IMG/VR virus record: IMGVR_UViG_3300036851_000097
Span: 1 to 39,291 of that record
Direction: 5' to 3' (one strand)
Length of the DNA stretch: 39,291 nucleotides
DNA from: a virus
In this document: positions 128 to 25,119 of the stretch, one piece after another
Layout of the letters: the number at the start of each line of letters is the position of its first letter
Numbering within the stretch: position 1 is the stretch's first letter
The notes under the pieces: generated by a model
Database searches by the model: none
Told to the model about the DNA's origin: nothing
The model's input: the letters and a program-made list of their open reading frames with translations, nothing else
Made by a program: the position numbers and the translations under genes

Positions 128-1104
128 GGATTGGGCCAGGACGTGTTCAGGTACTGAGTAACGGGCCGTTGAGTAACCGGCGTTTCCCCGAAGAACCCGA
201 GGGATGTACAAGAAATCGAGAAACCGCCCGCCGTGGTGACGTACATCCGCGTAGCCCCTGCGGTCGAGTCACGGAGGAGCACCGCCCCTGCGGGAGCCAA
301 GGACGCCGCCGAACCCCCAATACCCCACGTATAGGACTGAGTAACGTCCGAGTTTGTAAATATGAGGCCGAGAATCGACGCATTGCTGTCGCTGATAACT
401 GGAGCGCCGCTTATGGTAGGCGAAGTGGCCCGCACGTTGTTTCCCGTGCCGGTGCTGGAAACGTACTGCCAAACCGTCCCGTTGCTGATGGGGACTTGTC
501 CTCCCGTGCCAACTGTGGTCAACCCCGCAATCGTCACGTTCGGAGTTGGCCCAGTTCCGCTGGTCACAATAATTGGGCTAGTCCCCGTAACAGAGGTTAT
601 GTCCCCCACTTCGGGCGTGAAATACTCGAAAGCCGTGGCCCCGGAATTCACCCGAACCGACTGGCCCGCCGTTCCCATGGCGAGTGGGAGCACCAAACCG
701 CCAGAGTCTATCGTCAAGAACGTCGTAGTCGACGCAATGGCGATGTTCGGAAGTGTGAAGGCAGTTCCCGTCACCGTCAGGGTTTGAATAGTCGGACCCA
801 GGGCACGGACGATGTTACCCGCGCCCGTGCTAGACTGATACCCCCAAGCGGTGCCGTTGCTGATGGGCAGTTGCCCGCTGGTGCCTAGAGTGGTCAGCCC
901 GGAAATCGAAAGCGTCCGAGTGGTTGTGCCGGAAGCGACAAGCGGGGAGGTGGCGTTTACCGTCGTGAGGGAATCCGCTGCCAGCTCGAAGCCGGTTTCG
1001 CCCGCGTTCACACGCAGGACTTTGAGGGAATCCCCGGAAAGGGAGCCTGTGTAGGCCAACCCATTAGCGGCGATCCAGTCTAGAATTGAAAAAGTTGCGG
1101 CCAT
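13..1104 (-). CDS. Tail fibre protein, paralogue 1 (internally duplicated ~75-aa module)
   Basis: 363-aa Gly/Thr/Ser-rich ORF. The module GLTTLGTSGQLPISNGTAWGYQSSTGAGNIVRA / GLTTVGTGGQVPISNGTVWQYVSSTGTGNNVRA occurs twice and is shared with the next ORF. It follows the tailspike gene. Its TAA overlaps the ATG (TAATG) of the ORF ending at 39177, across the junction. Confidence 0.7.
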   Translation of the reverse strand: MAATFSILDWIAANGLAYTGSLSGDSLKVLRVNAGETGFELAADSLTTVNATSPLVASGTTTRTLSISGLTTLGTSGQLPISNGTAWGYQSSTGAGNIVRALGPTIQTLTVTGTAFTLPNIAIASTTTFLTIDSGGLVLPLAMGTAGQSVRVNSGATAFEYFTPEVGDITSVTGTSPIIVTSGTGPTPNVTIAGLTTVGTGGQVPISNGTVWQYVSSTGTGNNVRATSPTISGAPVISDSNASILGLIFTNSDVTQSYTWGIGGSAASLAPAGAVLLRDSTAGATRMYVTTAGGFSISCTSLGFFGETPVTQRPVTQYLNTSWPNPVTDTTAFNTAVSVFLANYIDQQQALGDSSGYGLFDLV

Positions 1105-1105
1105 G

Positions 1106-2155
1106 TTAGCTCCCTGAAATAGCGGTGATTATCCCGTTAACAACGGTTATGGAAGTGATGGTGGTGAACGTACCGCCAGCGGCACCAGCCACTCCGCCGA
1201 CAGAGAACGAATCCGCGTCCAGATTCTCGGTAAAGACGGCGTCCCCGTCCGTCTCGATGTAGGCGCGAGTCATACCCAAAGATGAGTCGCGGAACAGGAG
1301 CGCCCCCGCAGGAGCGAGGCTAGCCGCCGAACCAGAAATACCCATAGTCCAAACCTGGGTAACATCTGTATTTTCCAGAGCGAAACCAACGATGGAGGCG
1401 TTAGAGAACGACACCGCCATAGAACCGGACCAGTTGGAAGCCGCGCCCGCGACCGTTCCCGTGAATGTAGGGGAAATCGCTCTGACGACATTTCCGGTGC
1501 CCGTGGTGCTCTCGTACCCCCAGATCGTCCCGTTGCTCATGACGACTTGGTTGGCGGAGCCTACACCCGTCATCCCGGCCAGAGTCACGTCAGGAACAGG
1601 GCCGCTGCCGGAAGTAACGATAATCGGGGAAGTCCCGGTAACGCCGGTGATATTTCCCACCGTAGGGTCGTACCACTCCAGCGCGGTAGCGCCAGCGTTC
1701 ATACGCATAACTTGATTCGCGGTTCCATAGGCGGTAAGGCCAGAGATTGAAAGTACTGGGTCAGCACCGCCAGAGGACAGGAGCGGTAACTCCGCTGTGA
1801 GTGTGGAAATCATACCTGATGCTCCTAGAAAAAAGAATGGCGTTGTAATGTTTGCCGTAACTAGTAACTGCCCCACGAAAGAATCTGGGACTAGCTTTAC
1901 CTCGGTATATCCAACTACGGAAGCGATGTAATTGCCCGTGGTTGTGATTGATGTGTAGGACGTTTGAGCCTTATAGGCAGCAAGCACCGTCCAAGAGTTT
2001 CCGTCAATAGTTCCCTCTAGGGTGATCGTCCCAGAGGTGAAAGTGCCCGCCAAGGAAAAACCAATGGAACCGAAGCCGAGGGTGGAATAGGATATACCCT
2101 GACTTCCTGCGGTTTCGATTGTCCCCGATTGGGTAAAGGCATTAATTGCGCTCAT
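1106..2155 (-). CDS. Tail fibre protein, paralogue 2
   Basis: 349 aa. It shares SPIIVTSGSGPVPDVTLAGMTGVGSANQVVMSNGTIWGYESTTGTGNVVRA and the C-terminal GISGSAASLAPAGALLFRDS block with ORF 13..1104. The N-terminal third is divergent. Confidence 0.7.
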   Translation of the reverse strand: MSAINAFTQSGTIETAGSQGISYSTLGFGSIGFSLAGTFTSGTITLEGTIDGNSWTVLAAYKAQTSYTSITTTGNYIASVVGYTEVKLVPDSFVGQLLVTANITTPFFFLGASGMISTLTAELPLLSSGGADPVLSISGLTAYGTANQVMRMNAGATALEWYDPTVGNITGVTGTSPIIVTSGSGPVPDVTLAGMTGVGSANQVVMSNGTIWGYESTTGTGNVVRAISPTFTGTVAGAASNWSGSMAVSFSNASIVGFALENTDVTQVWTMGISGSAASLAPAGALLFRDSSLGMTRAYIETDGDAVFTENLDADSFSVGGVAGAAGGTFTTITSITVVNGIITAISGS

Positions 2156-5297: not shown

Positions 5298-6538
5298 TAT
5301 TCAACCACCGCTGGCCTGCCATTAACGGTTATTTCGGTCCCAGACGGAAGGTTTGCGGCGTTCGCTTCTTCTTCCGATGCGAAATCCCGAACCGTTGCCC
5401 CTTCTGGTTTGCGGATTCCTTCGGGAGCCTGAGAATTCAAGTAATCCCGTATTAAGGGGGATTCCTGGTAACCAGCCTGTGGCCCGTAAAGCTGCCCCTG
5501 ATCGGCAATAGTCTCGTTATAGACTTGGACAAAACGGGCCAGTTTCTTTTTAGCCGTTTCTGGGGAATCCCCCGTGCGAGGAATAAAAGGACGCAATCTC
5601 GGATATTCAGAAACAGTAACAGCCGCGCCAGAACGGTCGTGGATAATCATGCTTCCAAGGTCTGCAATAGCGGCGCGGGTATCGACGCCTTGCGGGTCAA
5701 ACGTATTTAAAACGTATTCCCGCTTGTCTCCACCCGTCATTAAGCCCTTTAAATACCCGGTAGCGTCCTTGCTCCCCTTCATTACGCCGACATCTTTTCC
5801 ACTAAGCAAGTCAAGCGCCGCCTGCGCCTTCTTGGCGTTCTGGATGTTCTCTAGGATTTGGGTATTGGCAGAAACCGGGATAGGCTTTCCGTTTTGACCA
5901 GCGTTCATTCTCCCAGTGTTCGCGTTGAACCATTCAATATTGTTCTTAACCCGATTTTGCCGCTCAATCTCAGCCTGTTTACGCTTTTCGAACTGTGCGT
6001 CCGATTCGTCTTTTTTCTGCTTATAGGCGAAATCCGCACCCGTCTGAATCTGCTTCTGATCTTCTTCCGCCATCTTGCGGGTACGATCCTCAAGCCCTTG
6101 ACGTTCCGTAATGTTTCCGGTGCGGAAAGCATCGGCCATATCGGGGTTAATCCGCGCAAGGTCAATGGTCGCCCTGGTTTCCATGGGGTTACGTTGTTCA
6201 GGAGCACCCATAGGTCCGAAAGGCGCGTTTGACGGTCTTTGATCTTGCGAGAACTCAGGAGAGCGAACACCAACGGGAAGGTCTAAGGCACCTTCACGGT
6301 TAATGATGTAATCCCGGCGAACGCCACGGCCTTGTTCGCCTTCCCTAGTCGTTCTTTCAAGTTCTTTTTGGATAAGGGCGGTTTTGGCTAGGTCGATTTC
6401 ACCTTGGCGTAAATCCTGTGCGGCTTTCTTGGCAAGCGACAGCGCGGCGCGTGACTCGTCATCACGCTTTACGGCTTGGCCGTAATAGTCCGTATTGTCG
6501 CGGGGAATGCTCCCCATTCTTGCCAAGGAAATAGCCAT
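5297..6538 (-). CDS. Putative ejection/internal virion protein
   Basis: 413-aa charged, coiled-coil-like ORF (KKDESDAQFEKRKQAEIERQNR). Overlapping start and stop with both neighbours. Function inferred by synteny. Confidence 0.5.
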   Translation of the reverse strand: MAISLARMGSIPRDNTDYYGQAVKRDDESRAALSLAKKAAQDLRQGEIDLAKTALIQKELERTTREGEQGRGVRRDYIINREGALDLPVGVRSPEFSQDQRPSNAPFGPMGAPEQRNPMETRATIDLARINPDMADAFRTGNITERQGLEDRTRKMAEEDQKQIQTGADFAYKQKKDESDAQFEKRKQAEIERQNRVKNNIEWFNANTGRMNAGQNGKPIPVSANTQILENIQNAKKAQAALDLLSGKDVGVMKGSKDATGYLKGLMTGGDKREYVLNTFDPQGVDTRAAIADLGSMIIHDRSGAAVTVSEYPRLRPFIPRTGDSPETAKKKLARFVQVYNETIADQGQLYGPQAGYQESPLIRDYLNSQAPEGIRKPEGATVRDFASEEEANAANLPSGTEITVNGRPAVVE

Positions 6539-7311
6539 TAGTAAGCCGAAGCCCCACCGCTCAGGTAATCGTACCCACGTTTACCAAGAGAAAGAGCCTT
6601 GGAAGGATCAAAACCATCTACCGCGCCTTTAGCCATGGACCCAGCGGTGCCGTAAGCCTTGCGGTAGTTACCAGAACGGATAGCCCCAACGCCCAACTCG
6701 GTGTCGGCTTTGCCTTGTGCGCGTCCAAGGCCCAAATCAATCATGTTTTCGGTTTGACCGGGGGCGAAGTTCGCTAGCGTCTGCCCTTGCTGGAAGTCGA
6801 GCGCACGGTTTTCTGCGTTCGCGTCGTAAGCCCTGTTTTCGGCCCCGTAGTCGAAGTTCCGGTCGTCCTCGTATTGACCCCTAGAACGGTTGTAAAGCTC
6901 GTCTGAGCGCCCTGCAAACAGGTCTGAGCCGTACTTGGTTAGGTCTTGCTGGGTGCGTCCGGAGAACAAGCCCCCCTTAGATGCCGCGCCGCCCTCAATG
7001 GCCTGTTGCCCAGCCCTAAGATTGGCCTGATATTCAGGGTCTTGGAAGATGGAATTTGGGTCAAATGAGAAGTCACCCGCCTGGTATTTCTGCTGATCGG
7101 GATTGGAAAACTCCCCAGCATTGTACCTGTCGGATTGACGTTGGAAATTTTGGGTGGACGTATCATACAAGGGTTTAGCGAGGTCAATGCCTCCCTGATA
7201 CCCTTGGTCGATGTAATTACCCGCTTTGCGCGTGGCACGGCGCTCGATATTCGTGGCCTTATTCCCACCAATAATATCGGCAGCCCCGCCTACGATATCG
7301 CCAAGTGCCAT
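6538..7311 (-). CDS. Putative ejection/internal virion protein
   Basis: 257-aa Gly/Gln/Asn/Asp-rich ORF, translationally coupled on both sides. Function inferred by synteny. Confidence 0.45.
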   Translation of the reverse strand: MALGDIVGGAADIIGGNKATNIERRATRKAGNYIDQGYQGGIDLAKPLYDTSTQNFQRQSDRYNAGEFSNPDQQKYQAGDFSFDPNSIFQDPEYQANLRAGQQAIEGGAASKGGLFSGRTQQDLTKYGSDLFAGRSDELYNRSRGQYEDDRNFDYGAENRAYDANAENRALDFQQGQTLANFAPGQTENMIDLGLGRAQGKADTELGVGAIRSGNYRKAYGTAGSMAKGAVDGFDPSKALSLGKRGYDYLSGGASAY

Positions 7312-7703
7312 TATTCGCCTGCCGTTCCGCTTATAATTACCCTGCTGGAGCTAGTCCAGTTGGGCAAGTAAAGACGAGTAGTGTTTTTCTCAATGTAGGC
7401 CACTTTTGGGGCCGTGTCCGTATCAACTTTTATCAAAAACAGGGAAGTAGCGAAGGACGCAAACGGAAGGTCTAAGTAGGCGCTAGAGGCGGTAGATGCC
7501 CCCGTTAGTTCGATATTCACGTTCCAAAGCCTGCCCATTCTAACGAGGCCAGAGGTCACCGTAGGGCTACCCGTTACCCCTGAGAATACGGGTGTGAACG
7601 TCTGTAATTGCGGGTACAGATCGTCAAATAGAAGGTTTAAAAACCGCTTCCAGTTGGAGTCTATGCCTTCTACTTGTGCCGGGAATGGGAACCTTACTCT
7701 CAT
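7311..7703 (-). CDS. Virion structural protein, function unknown
   Basis: 130-aa ORF coupled to both neighbours inside the tail module. Confidence 0.55.
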   Translation of the reverse strand: MRVRFPFPAQVEGIDSNWKRFLNLLFDDLYPQLQTFTPVFSGVTGSPTVTSGLVRMGRLWNVNIELTGASTASSAYLDLPFASFATSLFLIKVDTDTAPKVAYIEKNTTRLYLPNWTSSSRVIISGTAGE

Positions 7704-9430
7704 TGCATCGTCACCCGTACTTTACGCCATGAGATGTAATGGTTCGCCACTACCGCAAGTTTGAAAACAAACCCGAAAGCAGCGCCCAAGCCAGTCCATC
7801 GAACCCTGGTCGAGTAAGAACTATTTCCCCCCATGGGTTGCCATAGTTCTTGCCCGTAAGTCATCCCCCTGTTTGTCGAGTAGGTGAGCATTACTTTAGG
7901 CCCCTCGAAAGGAATCTCGTAAGCACTTTCTGCCATGGCTAAAGCCAGATTGAGGTTGTTTAAGAAACTCTCTGTTTCTAGTGCAGGGTTAGGGGAAGAG
8001 ACATTCCACGTCCCACTAGGGTAAGTGACCTTTAGGTCGGTCAAAAAGGTGTTTATCTGGGTCAAGAAAGCAGGGAGCGTCATAGCAGGGTTCAAGCACG
8101 GAACCAAAGCCGGATTAAGAGCGGCATAAACCGCGTTCATATTATCCAGGAACTCCGGTAGCTCAATCATGGGATTGGGGGAAACAGAGGAAAAAGGCGC
8201 GGTATTGGACGATTCCCCTAAAGGCTCATTTCCTACCGTGCAGAATAGCTCCAACGACCCACAATAAGACATCCAGTCCGCTTCCTCTGGAATGACGGGC
8301 AACGTCCGCTCCCTGCGGATAGGTGCGCCATTGTCGGTATAAACGGTATTGCTTATCTCGAAAAACTTGCCGTCACGCTTGTCTAAGCCAAGGAGTTTCC
8401 CATCGTGGATAATGACACTCACATAAGGGACGGCGTACATGTGGTTCGTGAGCGCATCGCGCCACGCCCTATCATGCCATTGCTTGGTGTCATCGTCGTA
8501 GCAAATGGTCTGATTCCCGGTCCCAAAGGTCAAGACATAGAACGTATGGCCTAGAGCCTGGTAGCAGTACCCGATAGCGTCCGAAGGGTCTGAAATGGCG
8601 GCTATTTGTCTTTCCGTGGAGTGGCTGCTTAGCCTTTGTGGGCTGCCACCTTCTGTATAACGGTAAACAACCCCTTTCCCCGCCTCATTCCCTCCAAGCC
8701 AGTATATGTATCGGTTAAAGGCAAAGACGCTCTTAGGAGCCTCACAACCTATCCCAAAACCGCTTACAATCTGGGTGAAGGCAAATTGGCCGGTGTACCC
8801 CTCGGTAGTCCATACTTCAAACCCTGAATCCGTGAAAATAGTGATGGATTTCCCGGTAGAAGCAAGGGCGACAATATCCCCCACCGTATTTTGAAGGCCA
8901 ACAAAATTAGTCCCCGGCCAATCAAGAAAGTCGTAGAGAGCTGAGAATTGCCATTGGTTCGTCCCCGGCTTTACGGTAGCAGCGTAGCCGCCCGCAAAGA
9001 CCGCTTGGGAAAGCCCACCGACAAAGCCGTGTGTAGCCTCGGTTAACTCTGTAAAGGTGTTTCCAACGAACTCGAAAACATAACCGTGATCGTCATCCAC
9101 AATAAGGATTTGGCCTGATTCGTCTGGGGGGAGCGCCCCAATAATCGCCACGGGATTCTGTGTGCTCGATAGCGTACCACGGATTACCGCGCTACCGCCT
9201 ACAATCTCCTGAAAGAACGCACCACGAATACCGAACAACCGTCCACCCAAAGAGATAGACCCGCGCCCACCGTCATTTACCCCGAGGGAAGCGTATAGCT
9301 CCGCGCCGGGGGTTGGCTTTAAAGTCCAAGCGTCCCCCGTCTTTTCGGCGTAGAAGTTTAGGGTCTTTTGCGGGTCATCCTGTGGGACATTATTAGACGG
9401 CCCGACAATGGGGATATCTATGGTTTTCAC
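7700..9430 (-). CDS. Tail hub / DNA-stabilisation (P22 gp10-like position) protein
   Basis: 576 aa. The N-terminus (IPIVGPSN...DPQKTLNFYAEK) and the position after the adaptor-like ORF fit the second tail-hub protein of P22-type podoviruses. No search was run. Confidence 0.5.
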   Translation of the reverse strand: MKTIDIPIVGPSNNVPQDDPQKTLNFYAEKTGDAWTLKPTPGAELYASLGVNDGGRGSISLGGRLFGIRGAFFQEIVGGSAVIRGTLSSTQNPVAIIGALPPDESGQILIVDDDHGYVFEFVGNTFTELTEATHGFVGGLSQAVFAGGYAATVKPGTNQWQFSALYDFLDWPGTNFVGLQNTVGDIVALASTGKSITIFTDSGFEVWTTEGYTGQFAFTQIVSGFGIGCEAPKSVFAFNRYIYWLGGNEAGKGVVYRYTEGGSPQRLSSHSTERQIAAISDPSDAIGYCYQALGHTFYVLTFGTGNQTICYDDDTKQWHDRAWRDALTNHMYAVPYVSVIIHDGKLLGLDKRDGKFFEISNTVYTDNGAPIRRERTLPVIPEEADWMSYCGSLELFCTVGNEPLGESSNTAPFSSVSPNPMIELPEFLDNMNAVYAALNPALVPCLNPAMTLPAFLTQINTFLTDLKVTYPSGTWNVSSPNPALETESFLNNLNLALAMAESAYEIPFEGPKVMLTYSTNRGMTYGQELWQPMGGNSSYSTRVRWTGLGAAFGFVFKLAVVANHYISWRKVRVTMQ

Positions 9431-10173
9431 GGGTTCATTCCAGCTTTAATGACGTTCCACGGGAAAGCTGTGGGCGCGTTATTCGCCTTGCGAAGCTGGT
9501 ACGCCTGCTTCCACGTATAGGAAGCCATGACGAACTTCCCGCGCTCGGAATCGGCTTTAAGTTCCGGTGTGTCGAGCCTGCGCCACTTTGCCAGCCTGTA
9601 AGCCAGCATGTTTGTAAAGGCGTTGGTGAACCCGGAAGGAAGTTCAGCGAAGGCATATACATTGGCATTAGGATCACCCAAAGTCGTGACCCATTTCACC
9701 TTACAGGTAAACCGAATCGACCAAATGGAAGATGGGGTAGGCCAGAGGTATAAATCAGCCTGCGGCCACTTGGGGTTTAGGGCATAGTCCCACGGCTGCG
9801 CCGGATTGTTGGGGACGCTGATATTGTGCCGGTACTGCGGGAAAGTTATCTCCGTCAAGGGGAGATAGACAGGCTGAGCCCCTGGCTGAATCTGAATCTC
9901 ACCAGTAACGATTGTTTCTGGCCGAATGGGGGACGCGGGAGAGGCGTCACTTCCCGTTCCAAGCACATACTTATTTTGCCCTGGCACCGTGTCGAACTCT
10001 ACGTCAATGTCAAAGACGGGTAGAGCGATACCCTCCCCGTCCAGTTCATCAAGCAGGTTTTTAGCCCGAGCTTTAGCGCTATCGAGCGTGGCCGCATCAA
10101 TGATTTGGCCCTGTCCCAATATCCCCGACAAAGACAGGGAATCGCTATAAATCTCTTCCCATGTCGATGCCAT
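9427..10173 (-). CDS. Head-to-tail adaptor / tail tubular A-like protein
   Basis: 248 aa. Position is directly downstream of the coat region. The N-terminal pattern (SLSGILGQGQ...AKARAKNLLDELDGEG) resembles podovirus adaptor proteins. Confidence 0.5.
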   Translation of the reverse strand: MASTWEEIYSDSLSLSGILGQGQIIDAATLDSAKARAKNLLDELDGEGIALPVFDIDVEFDTVPGQNKYVLGTGSDASPASPIRPETIVTGEIQIQPGAQPVYLPLTEITFPQYRHNISVPNNPAQPWDYALNPKWPQADLYLWPTPSSIWSIRFTCKVKWVTTLGDPNANVYAFAELPSGFTNAFTNMLAYRLAKWRRLDTPELKADSERGKFVMASYTWKQAYQLRKANNAPTAFPWNVIKAGMNP

Positions 10174-10193
10174 GATAGAACCCCTCTAGCTGG

Positions 10194-10655
10194 TTAGCCT
10201 TCGAGGTTCTGAATACGCAGGACGAAGTAGCCCGCACCCGCCGTAAAGACGGTACCGGAAGCGGCCATTTCCAAAGAAATAGTATCCGTCTCGGAACCCA
10301 CGTTAAGCGCGGTGATCGCGGTAGCCGCCGTAATCTTGCCGATGGTGTCCGTATCCGCGAGAAGCAGTGTCAAGACACCCCCGGTCACGTTGGTCGTGCC
10401 GATCTCCAGGTTGAACACCTGCGAGGCGCTAGTGCCCGTCCCCGCTACCGTAGTGACGAATGCCAAAGCCAAAAGTTTGAACTTGTGGCCAACCGTGAAG
10501 TTAGTCATAAGGTCAATCGCGGCAGTCGAAAGCCCCGTCGCCAAGGAGGTGAGGGGGATCGTCAGGTTGTAGATACCCGAATACTGATCGACAGGGATAT
10601 AGTTCGTCCCGCCCGGAGTGAGGACGGTTTCGATGGATTCAGTAGAAGTTGCCAT
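10194..10655 (-). CDS. Small virion protein after the coat gene (possible decoration protein)
   Basis: I prefer the start at ATG 10655 (MATSTESIE...), which has AAGGAAA 7 nt upstream. The longer track ORF would overlap the coat gene. 153 aa, Thr/Ala/Gly-rich. Confidence 0.6.
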   Translation of the reverse strand: MATSTESIETVLTPGGTNYIPVDQYSGIYNLTIPLTSLATGLSTAAIDLMTNFTVGHKFKLLALAFVTTVAGTGTSASQVFNLEIGTTNVTGGVLTLLLADTDTIGKITAATAITALNVGSETDTISLEMAASGTVFTAGAGYFVLRIQNLEG

Positions 10656-16936: not shown

Positions 16937-17427
16937 TAGACTTCCCCGCCTGTCGGAGTCCTATTTGCCGCCCGTTCTCTGGCCTCTTTGAGCCTGTCGG
17001 TAAGGCCAATTTCCAAATTACCGGAGTGGTTTAGGTCTAGTCTTTCCCCGAATCGCTTGGGCTTTAGCTTGGAAAGGAACCATTTACGGGTATCGACCTT
17101 CAATCTGGCCCTATCTACCATGTCCCCGGTTTGAGTCTCGACCTTTAAGGTGTCCCCCTCCCCCGAGGTCTTAACCTTCTCTCCCATTAAGACGGTATCG
17201 GCAATTTCTAGGGCTTCCTCAAAGATCGTTTCGGCACGAACATCTGTTGCATGGTCGTATTGTTCCTTAAAGTCTGGCTTTTCCACAATCCAGCGAAAAA
17301 ACGCCGAAAGGCTGGGCATATCATCGTCCCGACAAATGCTTCTAATACTCTCCCCATCTACAACCCTTTTTAGGATTTTTTCGGATAGTTCAGGCGTGAA
17401 GATTGTAGGCCGTCCTGCTGGCATCAT
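16936..17427 (-). CDS. terS: Terminase small subunit
   Basis: 163 aa. N-terminal GRPTIFTPELSEKILKRVVDGESIRSICRDDDMPSLSAFFRW is the typical HTH start of gp3-type small terminases. Confidence 0.75.
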   Translation of the reverse strand: MMPAGRPTIFTPELSEKILKRVVDGESIRSICRDDDMPSLSAFFRWIVEKPDFKEQYDHATDVRAETIFEEALEIADTVLMGEKVKTSGEGDTLKVETQTGDMVDRARLKVDTRKWFLSKLKPKRFGERLDLNHSGNLEIGLTDRLKEARERAANRTPTGGEV

Positions 17428-17573
17428 AGGCTCCTTTGAGCCTTAAAGTGCTTGGCAATATCGTTTACAGTGAATACGCTCCACGTCTTACGCATAACGA
17501 CCTTTTGGTGAAGAGTGAAGCTAGGGTCCCCAAATACCTCTGCGAGGAACTTTTTGGTTCGGCGCTTGTTCAT
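17424..17573 (-). CDS. Hypothetical 49-aa protein
   Basis: MNKRRTKKFLAEVFG... Its ATG overlaps the upstream TAA (TAATG) and its TGA overlaps the terS ATG. Below the ORF-track length cut-off. Confidence 0.45.
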   Translation of the reverse strand: MNKRRTKKFLAEVFGDPSFTLHQKVVMRKTWSVFTVNDIAKHFKAQRSL

Positions 17574-17758
17574 TAGGGGGCCACCTTATCCCAATTGTAG
17601 TGCGCTTTGAGCATGGTTAAAGGGGTGCCCCCCGTTCGACTTTCGATTTCAAGGGGGCCATTCTCGAACATCTGGAACACGTTTACCTCTAACCCGTCTT
17701 CTGGTTTTTCTGTGTAAACACGGTATTTGCCGGGCTCCTTGATTTCGGCGGTTTTCAT
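17573..17758 (-). CDS. Hypothetical 61-aa protein
   Basis: I prefer the start at ATG 17758 (MKTAEIKEPG...), preceded by AAGGTGGAATA. Coupled to both neighbours. Confidence 0.55.
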   Translation of the reverse strand: MKTAEIKEPGKYRVYTEKPEDGLEVNVFQMFENGPLEIESRTGGTPLTMLKAHYNWDKVAP

Positions 17759-17925
17759 TATTCCACCTTGATAGCGGTTACACCGCACTTACGAGGGTGA
17801 ATCTTGATTATTTCAAATTGCTGACCACCAATATTGAGGATTTTACTGCTATGATCGTTCGGGGTTAGGGAAAGTCCTTTAACCGATTCCAAGGCCAAGA
17901 AGAAGTATTTGCGGGGCCTAGCCAT
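17758..17925 (-). CDS. Hypothetical 55-aa protein
   Basis: MARPRKYFFLALESVKG... TAATG overlaps at both ends. Confidence 0.45.
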   Translation of the reverse strand: MARPRKYFFLALESVKGLSLTPNDHSSKILNIGGQQFEIIKIHPRKCGVTAIKVE

Positions 17926-18041
17926 TACTCCGCCTCCAAAAGTAGAACGCGGTTATAAATGTCCACTCTAATGAGCTTCCCAGCCCGATGAGCGGCCAGG
18001 GCTTCGTCTAAAGTGACCTTTATCCATTTAATGTGCTTCAT
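17925..18041 (-). CDS. Hypothetical 38-aa protein
   Basis: MKHIKWIKVTLDEALAAHRAGKLIRVDIYNRVLLLEAE. ATGA overlap upstream and TAATG overlap downstream. Confidence 0.35.
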   Translation of the reverse strand: MKHIKWIKVTLDEALAAHRAGKLIRVDIYNRVLLLEAE

Positions 18042-18226
18042 TTCGTCCCCATAGGTTTGCAATTATACCTATCGAACGCCGCCCGTTCGGATGGTTTTTC
18101 AGCATAAAACGATTTCTTACAATCTAGGCATTCCCATGGGTATGAAGCTGGCCAAGAGTCGAAAGTTACACCAGCACCAAAAACAGTATTGAGGCTTTCA
18201 CAATGGCGGCATTTCGGATAATCCAT
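18038..18226 (-). CDS. Small zinc-ribbon protein
   Basis: 62 aa with CRHC...CLDC cysteine pairs. Confidence 0.6.
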   Translation of the reverse strand: MDYPKCRHCESLNTVFGAGVTFDSWPASYPWECLDCKKSFYAEKPSERAAFDRYNCKPMGTK

Positions 18227-18492
18227 TACTTGCCCCCCATAGGTTTAGCGAGTTTAACGGCTTTCTTGAAAGACTTTAGGCGGGAAGGGTCGATGGAGGT
18301 AGCGGGAATTGCAAATGCTCGATTCAAGTAAATAGTCTCGCCGGGATTGACTGAATTAATGTAGTCAGCACCTATGAGGTTTTTTCCTATAGCTTCTTCG
18401 GTTATTACCCGCTTACCATCTGGATAAGGAAGGGTTACCGTGCTTCCAGCGGTTGGCACTCCAGCAGGGATGGGGACTTGGGGGAGGGTCAT
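18226..18492 (-). CDS. Hypothetical protein
   Basis: 88-aa ORF, coupled to both neighbours. Confidence 0.6.
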   Translation of the reverse strand: MTLPQVPIPAGVPTAGSTVTLPYPDGKRVITEEAIGKNLIGADYINSVNPGETIYLNRAFAIPATSIDPSRLKSFKKAVKLAKPMGGK

Positions 18493-18668
18493 GGCTTCAT
18501 ACCTTTTGCCTCAAACTGCTCAAGAAGATTCGCCCGTTGTTGTGGCGTAGTCTCCGCGAAAAATCCTACATCCCATTCACCGCGATCATAAATGCATTGC
18601 ATCCCAGACGGTTCCCAACTATCGGGGGCAATTATCTTGGAGTAAGTGTAAGTCTCACGTTCAGACAT
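18489..18668 (-). CDS. Hypothetical 59-aa protein (first gene of the minus-strand operon)
   Basis: MSERETYTYSKIIAPDSWEPSG... GGGGG lies 6-7 nt upstream. Its TGA overlaps the next ATG. Confidence 0.5.
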   Translation of the reverse strand: MSERETYTYSKIIAPDSWEPSGMQCIYDRGEWDVGFFAETTPQQRANLLEQFEAKGMKP

Positions 18669-18740
18669 TCGCGCCCCCGAAAAACTTTTTGATTAACTCA
18701 CAACCTAGATTCTAGAGAGGCTTGAACGAAGTTCCCCCTA

Positions 18741-18772
18741 GAAAAGAAAAGTGAGGCTCAGGGGCTTCCCAC
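18741..18772 (-). terminator. Possible leader terminator/attenuator on the minus strand
   Basis: The minus strand reads GTGGGaagcccctgagCCTCAC (5 pairs including one G-U), followed by TTTTCTTTTC, about 75 nt upstream of the first late ORF. Weak stem. Confidence 0.3.
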
Positions 18773-19470: not shown

Positions 19471-19529
19471 GTGAGTCGGCAAGAGAGCCGGACAACTCCC
19501 CGGCCAGGGAGGATTACTAGGAGCAAATT

Positions 19530-20093
19530 ATGATAACCGTAATGTGCGACAAAGAAAAAGCGACTCGGGAAATCTCCCCGGAAGATGCCCGCTCCATGGG
19601 CTGGACGCTGGCCGAACCGATCTATATGTGCGATTTCGCCGTAGGTTGCGTGGTGGAACTGCGCGAGGGCAACCATTACCACGATTCGGACTTCTACGCC
19701 ACCTACTACGATATGGATTCGGGGGCGTTCAAGGAAGTCGAGTACGGCACCACCCGTTTTTGGAGCTATCCCAATGGCGCAAACATTGATGCAACGCCGG
19801 AAATTATGGCCCTTTGGGAAGCCCATTTAAAGGCTATCAGGGACGCAGCCCGAGCGCGTGAGGCGGCGTACATCGCAAGCCTCCCCACGGTCGGCAAGAC
19901 TGTTCGTGTGGTATCAGGCCGCAAGCTGGAAAAGGGCATCAAGGGTAAAATCTTCTGGCACGGTGCCAACGGGTTCAAGACCTACTATCGGAATGGCTAC
20001 AACCAACCTAACCCCTACGAACGTCTTGGAATCGAGCTGGAGGACGGGACCAAGGTTTTCACGGCCTCAAAGAACTGTGAAGTTTTAGCCTAA
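19530..20093 (+). CDS. Hypothetical protein
   Basis: 187-aa ORF with GGAG-like RBS (aggagcaaattATG). First large gene of the plus-strand operon. Confidence 0.7.
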   Translation: MITVMCDKEKATREISPEDARSMGWTLAEPIYMCDFAVGCVVELREGNHYHDSDFYATYYDMDSGAFKEVEYGTTRFWSYPNGANIDATPEIMALWEAHLKAIRDAARAREAAYIASLPTVGKTVRVVSGRKLEKGIKGKIFWHGANGFKTYYRNGYNQPNPYERLGIELEDGTKVFTASKNCEVLA

Positions 20094-20160
20094 CCCCGCT
20101 GACGAGTCCCCCCAAGGTAAAGGGGACGAAAGCCGCTGCCGGGAGGCATGGGCTACGGGA
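20094..20160 (+). ncRNA. Candidate hammerhead ribozyme (type I topology)
   Basis: CCCCG-CUGACGA-[GUCCCC/10-nt loop/GGGGAC]-GAAA-[GCC gc UGCC GGGA GGCA ug GGC]-U-A|CGGG. All invariant core nucleotides are present. Predicted cleavage is after A20155. Confidence 0.55.
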
Positions 20161-20201
20161 ATACCGCCTAACTGGTCGTTAGGGATTGACTAGGAGATAA
20201 T

Positions 20202-20537
20202 ATGAGCAACACGAAACACACGCCGGGGCCGTGGACGGCCTACAACGAGAACAGCGAATACCCGGGCATAGAGGGGGCCACGGAAAGCGTTGTTATTTGG
20301 GGCGAAAAGGGGGAGCAGGAGGGTGTTCGTGGAGATACCCATGCCCGCCGCCTTGCCAACGCCCGCCTTATAGCCGCCGCGCCGGATATGTGCGCGGCAC
20401 TAATCCGCGCCCTCAACGACTTCGAGAACATCCGGCGCAATCTCAATACGGACGACAACGAGACGCGCGAAGATAAGTGCCTCGCGTCCATGGGGATCAT
20501 TAACGAAGTATTAACCAAAGTGGAGGGTAAACAATGA
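20202..20537 (+). CDS. Hypothetical protein (TPGPW ... ANARLIAAAPDM motif family)
   Basis: 111 aa. The HTPGPW and NARLIAAAPDMCAAL motifs recur in many uncharacterised phage proteins. RBS is taggagataatATG. Confidence 0.7.
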   Translation: MSNTKHTPGPWTAYNENSEYPGIEGATESVVIWGEKGEQEGVRGDTHARRLANARLIAAAPDMCAALIRALNDFENIRRNLNTDDNETREDKCLASMGIINEVLTKVEGKQ

Positions 20538-20779
20538 CCTACCTAACCCCCGCCGAACTCCGCGCCAAAGCGGACGCAATGGACCAAGAGACAGCCTATG
20601 CCCGCAAGGGGAAGGTTCTGATTTCCCAATACACCGGAATGGCTTGCATTCATCAAGGGGACGCAAGTTATGAGCGGGCGGTAGCTGATTACCGCGAAGC
20701 CACCGAGGCCGAAATCCAAGCCCTCTGTACTATCCCGGAATTCGCCGCGTACCTGAAAAAAGTAAGGGGGGAGGCATGA
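20534..20779 (+). CDS. Hypothetical protein
   Basis: 81 aa. ATGA overlap with the upstream gene. Confidence 0.6.
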   Translation: MTYLTPAELRAKADAMDQETAYARKGKVLISQYTGMACIHQGDASYERAVADYREATEAEIQALCTIPEFAAYLKKVRGEA

Positions 20780-23728: not shown

Positions 23729-24328
23729 ATGAGTGAAACTAAAAGAGAGTACATCCTAACCCCGATTGGCTTTGCCAAGTGGGCGCACGTTCAAACCCCG
23801 AAACAGCCGTTTAAGGATGAACGCGGGGTTTCCAAGGGTGACCCGAAGTTCCAGATCGACGTTGTGTTTTTGGAGTCCGACCCCGAATGGTCCAAGTTTG
23901 TCGCGGCTATCCAAAAGCGCATGGCCGCGCTCCCGCAACAGGTGGACAAGAAGACGCAAAAGCCCATCGACAAGCAAGACCCTATCAAGTTTGAACTAGA
24001 CGCAAACGACAAGCCTACGGGCCGGAAGTACGTCACGTTCAAGACGGGCGAGAAGTTCCCCCCCGGTGTTTTCGACAAGTACAACGAGCCGATGAAAGAG
24101 GCCGTTGGAAATGAAAGCAGGGTGCGGGTCAGCTTTACGCCGGTTCCCTACGAGGCGTTTGGAGGGGGGTTAGCCCTTTATCTCAACGCCGTGCAAGTTC
24201 TGGAATTGGTCGAGTTCGGAAAGCGGTCTGCGGACTCCTATGGGTTCACAGCCGAACAACCGTCCAACGATTTCGGACAAGCCCCGCAACACGGGGACGA
24301 TGATATGCCGGAATTCCTGCGTAATTAA
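23729..24328 (+). CDS. ssDNA-binding protein, T7 gp2.5-like
   Basis: 199 aa. N-terminal ILTPIGFAKWAHVQTPK, a YLNAVQVLELVEF segment, and an acidic C-terminal tail ending in an aromatic residue (HGDDDMPEF). RBS AAGGAG. Confidence 0.7.
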   Translation: MSETKREYILTPIGFAKWAHVQTPKQPFKDERGVSKGDPKFQIDVVFLESDPEWSKFVAAIQKRMAALPQQVDKKTQKPIDKQDPIKFELDANDKPTGRKYVTFKTGEKFPPGVFDKYNEPMKEAVGNESRVRVSFTPVPYEAFGGGLALYLNAVQVLELVEFGKRSADSYGFTAEQPSNDFGQAPQHGDDDMPEFLRN

Positions 24329-24405: not shown

Positions 24406-25119
24406 ATGTCTAGATCATACACGGTAAACGACATCGAAAGACCAAGCGTAACAACCGTTCTAGGGCTTTTGGACAAATCCGATGCCCTGCTAGGATGGGC
24501 GGTTAAATGCTGTACCGAGTTTATCCGGCAACACAAAGGGAACCGTGACCAATACCCTACCCTGGACGCGCTCCTAGAAGCCGCTCAAAGGAACTGGCGG
24601 GACGTTCGCGACACCGCCGCCGACACCGGATCACAAATCCACGAAGCGATCAGCAACTACATCGAACACGGTCACGACATGTTTGGGGTAGTCCCCGAAG
24701 GAATAGCAAACGGGTTTTTGGCTTTCCTTGAATGGGAAAAGGCCAATAAGGTTACGTGGCTTAAATCCGAATTGACCGTTTACCACCCTGACCTACACTA
24801 TGCCGGAACCCTGGATGCCGTGGCCCTAATAGACGGGAAAACGTATGTCGTGGACTTCAAATCTTCGGGGGGGTTCTATGATACCTTTGGGCCCCAGATC
24901 GCGGCTTACAGGGCCGCATACATGGCTGAGACGGGGGAAGAAATCTACGGCTGCGGGATTCTTCGCCTTGACAAGAAAACGGGTATTCCAGAATGGAAAG
25001 ACTACACGAAACGGCAAGACCGGGACTTCAATTCATTCTCGAAACTTCTTGACTACTACTACGCCGCCGCGCATAGGCGCTTGAAAAATAATCCTCGCTG
25101 CGTGGAAGGGAAAATCTAG
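24406..25119 (+). CDS. PD-(D/E)XK exonuclease (Cas4/RecB/YqaJ-like)
   Basis: 237 aa. GTLDAVALIDGKTYVVDFKSS (D...D/E-x-K) and QIAAYRAAY (QxxxY) motifs. Adjacent to the SSB. Confidence 0.7.
   Translation: MSRSYTVNDIERPSVTTVLGLLDKSDALLGWAVKCCTEFIRQHKGNRDQYPTLDALLEAAQRNWRDVRDTAADTGSQIHEAISNYIEHGHDMFGVVPEGIANGFLAFLEWEKANKVTWLKSELTVYHPDLHYAGTLDAVALIDGKTYVVDFKSSGGFYDTFGPQIAAYRAAYMAETGEEIYGCGILRLDKKTGIPEWKDYTKRQDRDFNSFSKLLDYYYAAAHRRLKNNPRCVEGKI

Follow-up and report, generated by a model that had tools for sequence, protein, structure and literature searches.

The intergenic spacer described here lies in IMG/VR virus record IMGVR_UViG_3300036851_000097, of which the whole stretch of 39,291 nucleotides (nt) was analysed (hereafter the window), and it very probably encodes, at 20095-20165 on the plus strand, a type I hammerhead self-cleaving ribozyme placed inside a same-strand polycistronic phage transcript. 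The spacer (20094-20201) comprises 108 bases between two same-strand genes; no open reading frame of at least 40 amino acids (aa) spans it, and no promoter-like or terminator-like site is predicted within it. The window itself is apparently a whole metagenomic phage contig with a GC content of about 52% and no tRNA genes; in the protein collection searched, the exact flanking proteins are present a single time, on a JGI contig of 39,291 bp. Terminase, portal and structural genes occupy the minus strand from 13 to about 17400, the gene blocks diverge around 17400-18750, and a long plus-strand block starting at 18751 runs from small genes of unknown function through the hammerhead to further genes, including those for a Gp2.5-like single-strand-binding/annealing protein (23729-24328) and an exonuclease (24406-25119). 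With the terminases of Pseudomonas phages UFJF_PfDIW6 and AF, and with those of enterobacterial P22-like prophages, the terminase of the window shares about 50% identity. An earlier reading of the same letters (the first-pass annotation) had called the flanking genes early; that term follows from the order of the genes, small unknown ones followed by the Gp2.5-like protein and the exonuclease, and we regard them as presumably early.

Read directly from 19900 to 20400, the sequence agrees base for base with the hammerhead elements listed in the first-pass annotation, including every invariant position and all coordinates (Table 1). The parts follow one another in the type I order, with stem I open and stems II and III closed by loops: the 5' strand of stem I, CUGANGA, stem II, GAAA, stem III, H17 and the 3' strand of stem I. 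Three helices meet at the core, namely a stem I of 4 base pairs (bp), a stem II of 6 bp and a stem III of 4 + 4 bp with a single 2x2 internal loop, and the core-adjacent pairs are all intact (C20156-G20098, G20106-C20127 and A20131-U20154), with no mispair under the criterion of PMC3088659. Folding of 20094-20160 gives precisely this three-way junction as the minimum-free-energy structure, and the hammerhead fold also has the lowest free energy for nascent RNA up to about 20175. Hammerhead numbering gives the position of the cleavage site, which is predicted 46 nt before the ATG at 20202, and the predicted products are a 5' piece with a 2',3'-cyclic phosphate end and a 3' piece with a 5'-OH at C20156. 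The hammerhead identity and type I topology claimed at first pass are thus borne out by sequence reading and folding, as well as by the descriptor and covariance model described below, and so are the predicted cleavage site (20155|20156), the GNRA loop on stem III and the location between genes of a same-strand block.

Table 1. Features of the hammerhead spacer and its flanking genes, in window coordinates.
Feature	Position	Strand	Details
Upstream gene	19530-20093	+	187 aa; TAA stop at 20091-20093; ribozyme starts 1 nt later
Stem I, 5' strand	20095-20098	+	CCCG; pairs with 20156-20159; 4 bp
Core strand	20099-20105	+	CUGACGA = C3 U4 G5 A6 C7 G8 A9
Stem II hairpin	20106-20127	+	GUCCCC 20106-20111 / GGGGAC 20122-20127; 6 bp; closing pair G10.1-C11.1
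Loop II	20112-20121	+	10 nt, CCAAGGUAAA
Candidate pseudoknot, 5' half	20116-20119	+	GGUA, in loop II; by sub-class analogy
GAAA	20128-20131	+	Core G12 A13 A14 plus A15.1
Stem III, proximal part	20131, 20132-20134 / 20151-20153, 20154	+	A15.1 (20131)-U16.1 (20154), then GCC / GGC
Stem III, internal loop		+	2x2 (GC/UG); separates proximal and distal parts
Stem III, distal part	20137-20140 / 20145-20148	+	UGCC / GGCA; cap is GNRA loop GGGA 20141-20144
H17	20155	+	A, not G; predicted scissile bond between 20155 and 20156
Stem I, 3' strand	20156-20159	+	CGGG
Candidate pseudoknot, 3' half	20162-20165	+	UACC; 2 nt past stem I, offset as in relatives
Hairpin	20167-20183	+	CCUAAC-UGGUC-GUUAGG; 5' untranslated region of downstream gene
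Shine-Dalgarno sequence	20192-20196	+	AGGAG; serves ATG 20202
Downstream gene	ATG at 20202	+	111 aa; PF27050 Phage_P22_Y8K6 / phrog_1273; function unknown

The frequency of such a motif by chance was estimated in two ways. The pattern of core plus stem II is found a single time in the window, and not one of 100 dinucleotide-preserving shuffles contains it. A strict type I descriptor, which demands CUGANGA, GAAA, an H17 other than G, A15.1-U16.1 together with 3 or more bp of stem III, and 4 or more bp in both stem I and stem II, the latter with a G-C closing pair, has a single match on the two strands of the window. In 80 Mb of Markov-1 random sequence matched in composition it has no match, which puts the chance expectation per window below about 0.003.

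Further, an independent covariance model was built from hammerheads of other viruses. Pattern scans of IMG/VR viral contigs gave 15 loci and then at least 120, and more than 100 distinct sequences from these loci were classed as type I by the descriptor. An alignment of 96 of these viral-contig hammerheads made with MAFFT (A2) was misaligned in stem III, and the model (R1, 15 base pairs) was built from a length-compatible subset of 51 viral-contig type I hammerheads (A3) from which the window was excluded. With filters off, R1 matches the window at 20095-20169 over its full length (model positions 1-60) with 26.2 bits and, under a rough calibration, an E-value of 8.7e-6, and the pairing that it assigns is exactly that of the first-pass annotation. 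The next best match in the window reaches only 8 bits, so that just one hammerhead is present, and neither the descriptor nor R1 finds a further one in the window. Across 100 sources R1 recovers 98 hammerheads scoring between 24 and 70 bits; in their alignment 99.3% of the cells are paired and double changes occur in 13 of the 15 pairs, with a covariation score of 0.766 compared with 0.14 for shuffles and 0.05-0.10 for slid controls.

In architecture and placement the window element matches the more than 100 type I hammerheads recovered from viral contigs. It is also placed as is usual in the class: of the viral type I hammerheads, 46% start within 5 nt of a same-strand stop codon (1 nt in the window), and from cleavage site to following start codon the family median is 41 nt (46 nt in the window). 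The UA ahead of the cleavage site is also seen in several relatives.

The viral family additionally falls into sub-classes in which stem lengths are coupled. Among the 96 hammerheads of A2, a stem I of 6 bp goes with a stem II of 4-5 bp and a short loop, and a stem I of 4-5 bp goes with a stem II of 5-8 bp. Only in the latter group is loop II complementary to the 8 nt following stem I: the best Watson-Crick run averages 3.05 bp, compared with 2.29 +/- 0.12 for permuted partners (reached in 0 of 500 permutations), and in 38%, compared with 7%, the run reaches 4 bp or more. In the group with a 6-bp stem I, A2 shows no excess of complementarity between loop II and the 3' tail. The pairing sequence varies between phages (UGGC:GCCA, UGGU:ACCA, UGCGA:UCGCA, GGAUA:UAUCC and UGAU:AUCA), and the resulting covarying pseudoknot of 3-6 bp starts 1-3 nt past stem I in the relatives. 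The window follows the sub-class rule, with a 4-bp stem I, a 6-bp stem II and a pseudoknot candidate at offset 2. By analogy with these relatives, the 4-bp complementarity between GGUA and UACC (Table 1), absent from the first-pass annotation, is suggestive of a pseudoknot. It would be a tertiary contact of the kind reported by Perreault et al. in each of the three hammerhead topologies (PMC3088659).

Between the ribozyme and the downstream start codon lies a small hairpin (20167-20183), after which comes GAUUGACU. No hairpin of the spacer is followed by a U-tract, and the one at 20167-20183 is therefore not an intrinsic terminator. The proposal made at first pass, that this arrangement could stabilise the downstream fragment, is plausible, but our computations gave no support for such a role of the hairpin, and a stabilising effect of the hairpin or of the 5'-OH is speculation. 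Its 3' arm includes UCGUUAG (20176-20182), which is fully complementary to the core CUGACGA with one G-U pair. As a conserved regulatory feature this complementarity was rejected, given that matches to the core in 119 relatives are distributed in length just as in a reversed-sequence control; the family shows no enrichment of it, and it is therefore probably a coincidence. Two other candidate features of the flanks fared similarly. A distal extension of stem I (CCUAAC 20089-20094 with GUUAGG 20178-20183) has no enrichment in the family (4.29 vs 4.25). An exact 7-nt direct repeat, GCCTAAC, at 20088-20094 and 20166-20172 flanks the ribozyme and pseudoknot tail, its first copy including the upstream stop codon; as a target-site duplication it was discarded, flanking repeats not being significantly enriched in 121 family members (mean 4.09 vs 3.95 +/- 0.09; repeats of at least 7 nt in 5 vs 2.1 expected). 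The stem I extension and the repeat appear to be coincidences, and either may have a role at this single locus.

The collections searched hold no close relative of the window. A blastn search of 19500-20600 against 50,697 phage records returned nothing, scans of viral contigs with both flanking proteins gave no relatives, and two metagenome pattern scans for close copies of the ribozyme gave 0 and 5 matches, none of them related. When 23 window proteins were compared by tblastn with 153 hammerhead-bearing loci, only distant terminase, portal and similar matches were found, and none for the flanking genes. Past the homologues of the upstream gene (35-55% identical), the spacer is either 4-14 nt long or AT-rich, 83 nt in length and devoid of the motif. 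Among 80 viral loci with PF27050 homologues, type I hammerheads are present in one (L232) and absent from 79, and none of the six contigs closest by the downstream protein has a hammerhead. With the motif missing beside homologues of both flanking genes, the element is sporadic, in line with what has been reported for prophage hammerheads.

The scans also brought up arrangements of hammerheads that are of interest in themselves. Locus L232 contains three near-identical type I pseudoknot hammerheads with stem I GCCA/UGGC (361-417, 893-962 and 1425-1488, plus strand), which bracket two consecutive small genes, the third copy ending about 7 nt before the start codon of the PF27050 homologue; a few shared bases ahead of stem I suggest that the copies arose by duplication within the genome. 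In L198, three type II hammerheads (862-935, 1185-1250 and 1973-2035, plus strand) surround a gene block with a PF27050 homologue; in them the elements are ordered GGUC-GAAA, stem III hairpin, stem I hairpin and CUGAUGA-GACC, and R1 matches them partially (model positions 13-46). L001 holds at least seven type I hammerheads within 5 kb (5678-10576, plus strand; descriptor and R1), an array that recurs in L003, L005, L007, L008, L010, L011 and L014. In L012, a type I hammerhead at 200-275 is immediately preceded by a sub-threshold match to the Rfam chrB-b RNA (144-196, plus strand; 31.5 bits against a gathering score of 36.5).

Considering these features together, a mechanism can be proposed. 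During transcription, stems II and III would fold and the 4-bp stem I would close the three-way junction, while GGUA of loop II would probably pair with UACC 3' of stem I and hold stems I and II parallel. The core would then catalyse attack by the 2'-OH of A20155 on the adjacent phosphate, and the mRNA would be split between A20155 and C20156, 46 nt ahead of the next start. Of the two products, the upstream RNA would still carry the compact body of the ribozyme and would end in a 2',3'-cyclic phosphate, and the downstream RNA would begin with a 5'-OH, the small hairpin and the ribosome-binding site. The most likely effect would be that decay and translation of the two halves are uncoupled, as proposed for prophage hammerheads. 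Cleavage at this site is predicted from hammerhead chemistry and by analogy with the prophage experiments of PMC3088659.

Several observations weigh against this reading or would fit a chance match, beginning with Rfam. At gathering scores, Rfam 15 has no matches in the window. In E-value mode, RF00163 (Hammerhead_1) aligns to 20093-20145 with 22.9 bits, below its gathering score of 34, with an E-value of 0.0023 when 301 nt are searched and of 0.3 for the whole window; no other Rfam family matches the window at an E-value of 0.3 or better. Further, the R1 score is near the bottom of the family range, the R1 match is lost under default filters in a larger search, the folding z-score is an unremarkable -1.35, stem I has 4 bp only, and the 4-bp pseudoknot match, at a single locus, could be chance. 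Once 20176-20185 are transcribed, pairing of the core with UCGUUAG gives a fold predicted to be 2-4 kcal/mol more stable than the hammerhead fold, in energies that cover secondary structure only and leave out the pseudoknot and core tertiary contacts; in this competing fold the base-pair probability of stem I is about 0, and stems II and III persist. Finally, an orthologous spacer was not found in the databases searched, and the locus accordingly has no covariation of its own.

The Rfam result was put in perspective by a control. RF00163 treats stem III as a short insertion and consequently picks CGGGAG (20141-20146) as the 3' strand of stem I, which gives no valid hammerhead. Applied at gathering score to 20 viral loci with about 35 canonical type I hammerheads (L001, L015, L044, L064 and 16 others), Rfam detected no hammerheads and only two tRNAs; in E-value mode, the four textbook copies in L064 score just 25-30 bits in RF00163, and some copies in the control loci go to Hammerhead_3 at 20-29 bits. 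The first-pass annotation had named a sub-threshold covariance-model score as grounds for rejecting the hammerhead. For Rfam the score is literally below the threshold, but this yardstick is invalid, as the same model misplaces the 3' strand of stem I and misses the control hammerheads. A sub-threshold Rfam score is the norm for the phage type I group and therefore says nothing against the window element. Low R1 scores also occur in members with long stem III hairpins, namely L009 (28.4 bits), L012 (29.3) and L004 (30.5).

An RNA with the shape of a hammerhead but with little or no catalytic activity in its natural context is an unlikely alternative. Stems II and III would then serve only as a stable intercistronic structure, for example to block 3' exonucleases or to act as a spacer that uncouples translation, and the weak stem I would lose to the pairing of the core with 20176-20182. 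The greater stability of the alternative fold once 20185 is transcribed, the low Rfam and R1 scores, and the stem III internal loop and long loop II, both atypical of the family, are in favour of this explanation. All invariant core nucleotides are intact, however, which would not be expected of a mere pair of hairpins, a 4-bp stem I is normal in the pseudoknot sub-class, and the core complementarity lacks enrichment in the family; moreover, the energy model omits the pseudoknot and tertiary contacts, and co-transcriptional folding gives the ribozyme a head start. The same competing fold could also be put to use, in that the ribozyme would be a kinetically gated switch and not a constitutive cutter, which we consider very unlikely. 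The ribozyme starts 1 nt past the stop codon, and a terminating ribosome would thus cover stem I and the core; UCGUUAG, 17 nt past the complete ribozyme, might conceivably trap the core in the more stable modelled fold, an idea of low probability for this locus. If the switch were real, the cleaved fraction would be set by the relative speeds of transcription, upstream-gene translation and ribozyme folding, which would tune how far expression of the downstream early genes is coupled or uncoupled.

A more distant role for an active hammerhead, one other than mRNA processing, is highly improbable: the element might be part or remnant of a mobile or duplicating RNA/DNA element, or cleavage and ligation might lead to circular or spliced RNA. 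The GCCTAAC repeat that flanks the element, its sporadic occurrence beside homologues of both flanking genes, as an insertion would show, and the 3-6 related copies present on other phage contigs fit such a role, and ligation and circularisation have been raised as possibilities for prophage hammerheads by Perreault et al., who nevertheless detected no spliced or circular products (PMC3088659). Flanking repeats are not significantly enriched among the 121 family members, and a single hammerhead in the window makes two-site excision or circularisation impossible. That the hammerhead consensus arose here by chance and has no function is extremely improbable. The lack of conservation support at the locus, the modest z-score and the whole-window Rfam E-value would be expected of a chance match, but the descriptor finds nothing in 80 Mb of random sequence, the core pattern is missing from all 100 shuffles, the independent model R1 gives a significant E-value, and the element is intergenic, on the coding strand and directly past a stop codon, like the family. 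A self-cleaving type I hammerhead within a polycistronic phage mRNA is therefore the reading that we prefer.

For this ribozyme class, whose biological role in phages remains unproven, the locus adds one more well-formed example, and its clean anatomy, with a single copy directly past a stop codon and 46 nt before a start codon, makes it a convenient test case for the uncoupling of cistrons by cleavage. The practical lesson that the Rfam type I model misses phage hammerheads may outweigh the locus itself. Phage type I hammerheads are systematically under-annotated by automated annotation, because RF00163 at its gathering score misses the whole group, and about 100 of them, with strong covariation, come up when a simple model made from viral contigs is used. 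The coupling of stem I length to stem II length and pseudoknot use could further sharpen searches for such ribozymes.

Perreault et al. reported in 2011 (PMC3088659) that phages and prophages carry intergenic hammerheads, which represent all three topologies and in many cases have pseudoknots. Several of these hammerheads, including ones between prophage genes, cleave in vitro and in E. coli, the pseudoknots are required for fast cleavage, the genes beside them are 'not constant', and the processing of long phage transcripts is their proposed role (PMC3088659); later work still calls the function of phage and prophage hammerheads open (PMC8782182). The window element resembles the phage and prophage type I hammerheads (PMC3088659; Rfam clan CL00010, RF00163) in its core, its three-helix junction and its open stem I, and additionally in its place between same-strand phage genes, its candidate pseudoknot between the stem I region and loop II, and its proposed function. 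It differs from those of PMC3088659 in falling below the Rfam gathering score, in having a longer loop II (10 nt) and an internal loop within stem III, and in being a single, unclustered copy on a phage contig without a close relative in the collections searched.

Among the viral contigs of IMG/VR, the hammerheads of L015 (441-497, minus strand) and L124 (4158-4218, plus strand) resemble the window element in having stem I CCCG/CGGG, a stem II of 6 bp, a stop codon just ahead of the element (TGA in L015, TAA in L124), a gene downstream, and UA or UC before the cleavage site. In both, loop II and the 3' tail form a short pairing (GCA:UGC) that starts 1 nt past stem I, and their R1 scores of 38 and 41 bits are higher than that of the window; unlike the window element, they have a 4-nt loop II, a plain stem III hairpin of 4-7 bp, and unrelated flanking genes. 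The clustered hammerheads of L232, L198 and L001 are likewise intergenic, on the coding strand and just 5' of a start codon, but they occur as several copies that bracket single genes, and those of L198 are of type II, that is, circularly permuted. With intrinsic terminators and intercistronic stabiliser hairpins the window element has GC-rich spacer hairpins in common; it has no U-tract or terminator match, and hairpins alone would not explain the intact 11-nt hammerhead core. The element has every sequence and structure feature of the class that could be tested and falls short at the Rfam gathering score alone; it is a new example of a known and common phage-intergenic type, of which the loop II length and the stem III internal loop are minor variations.

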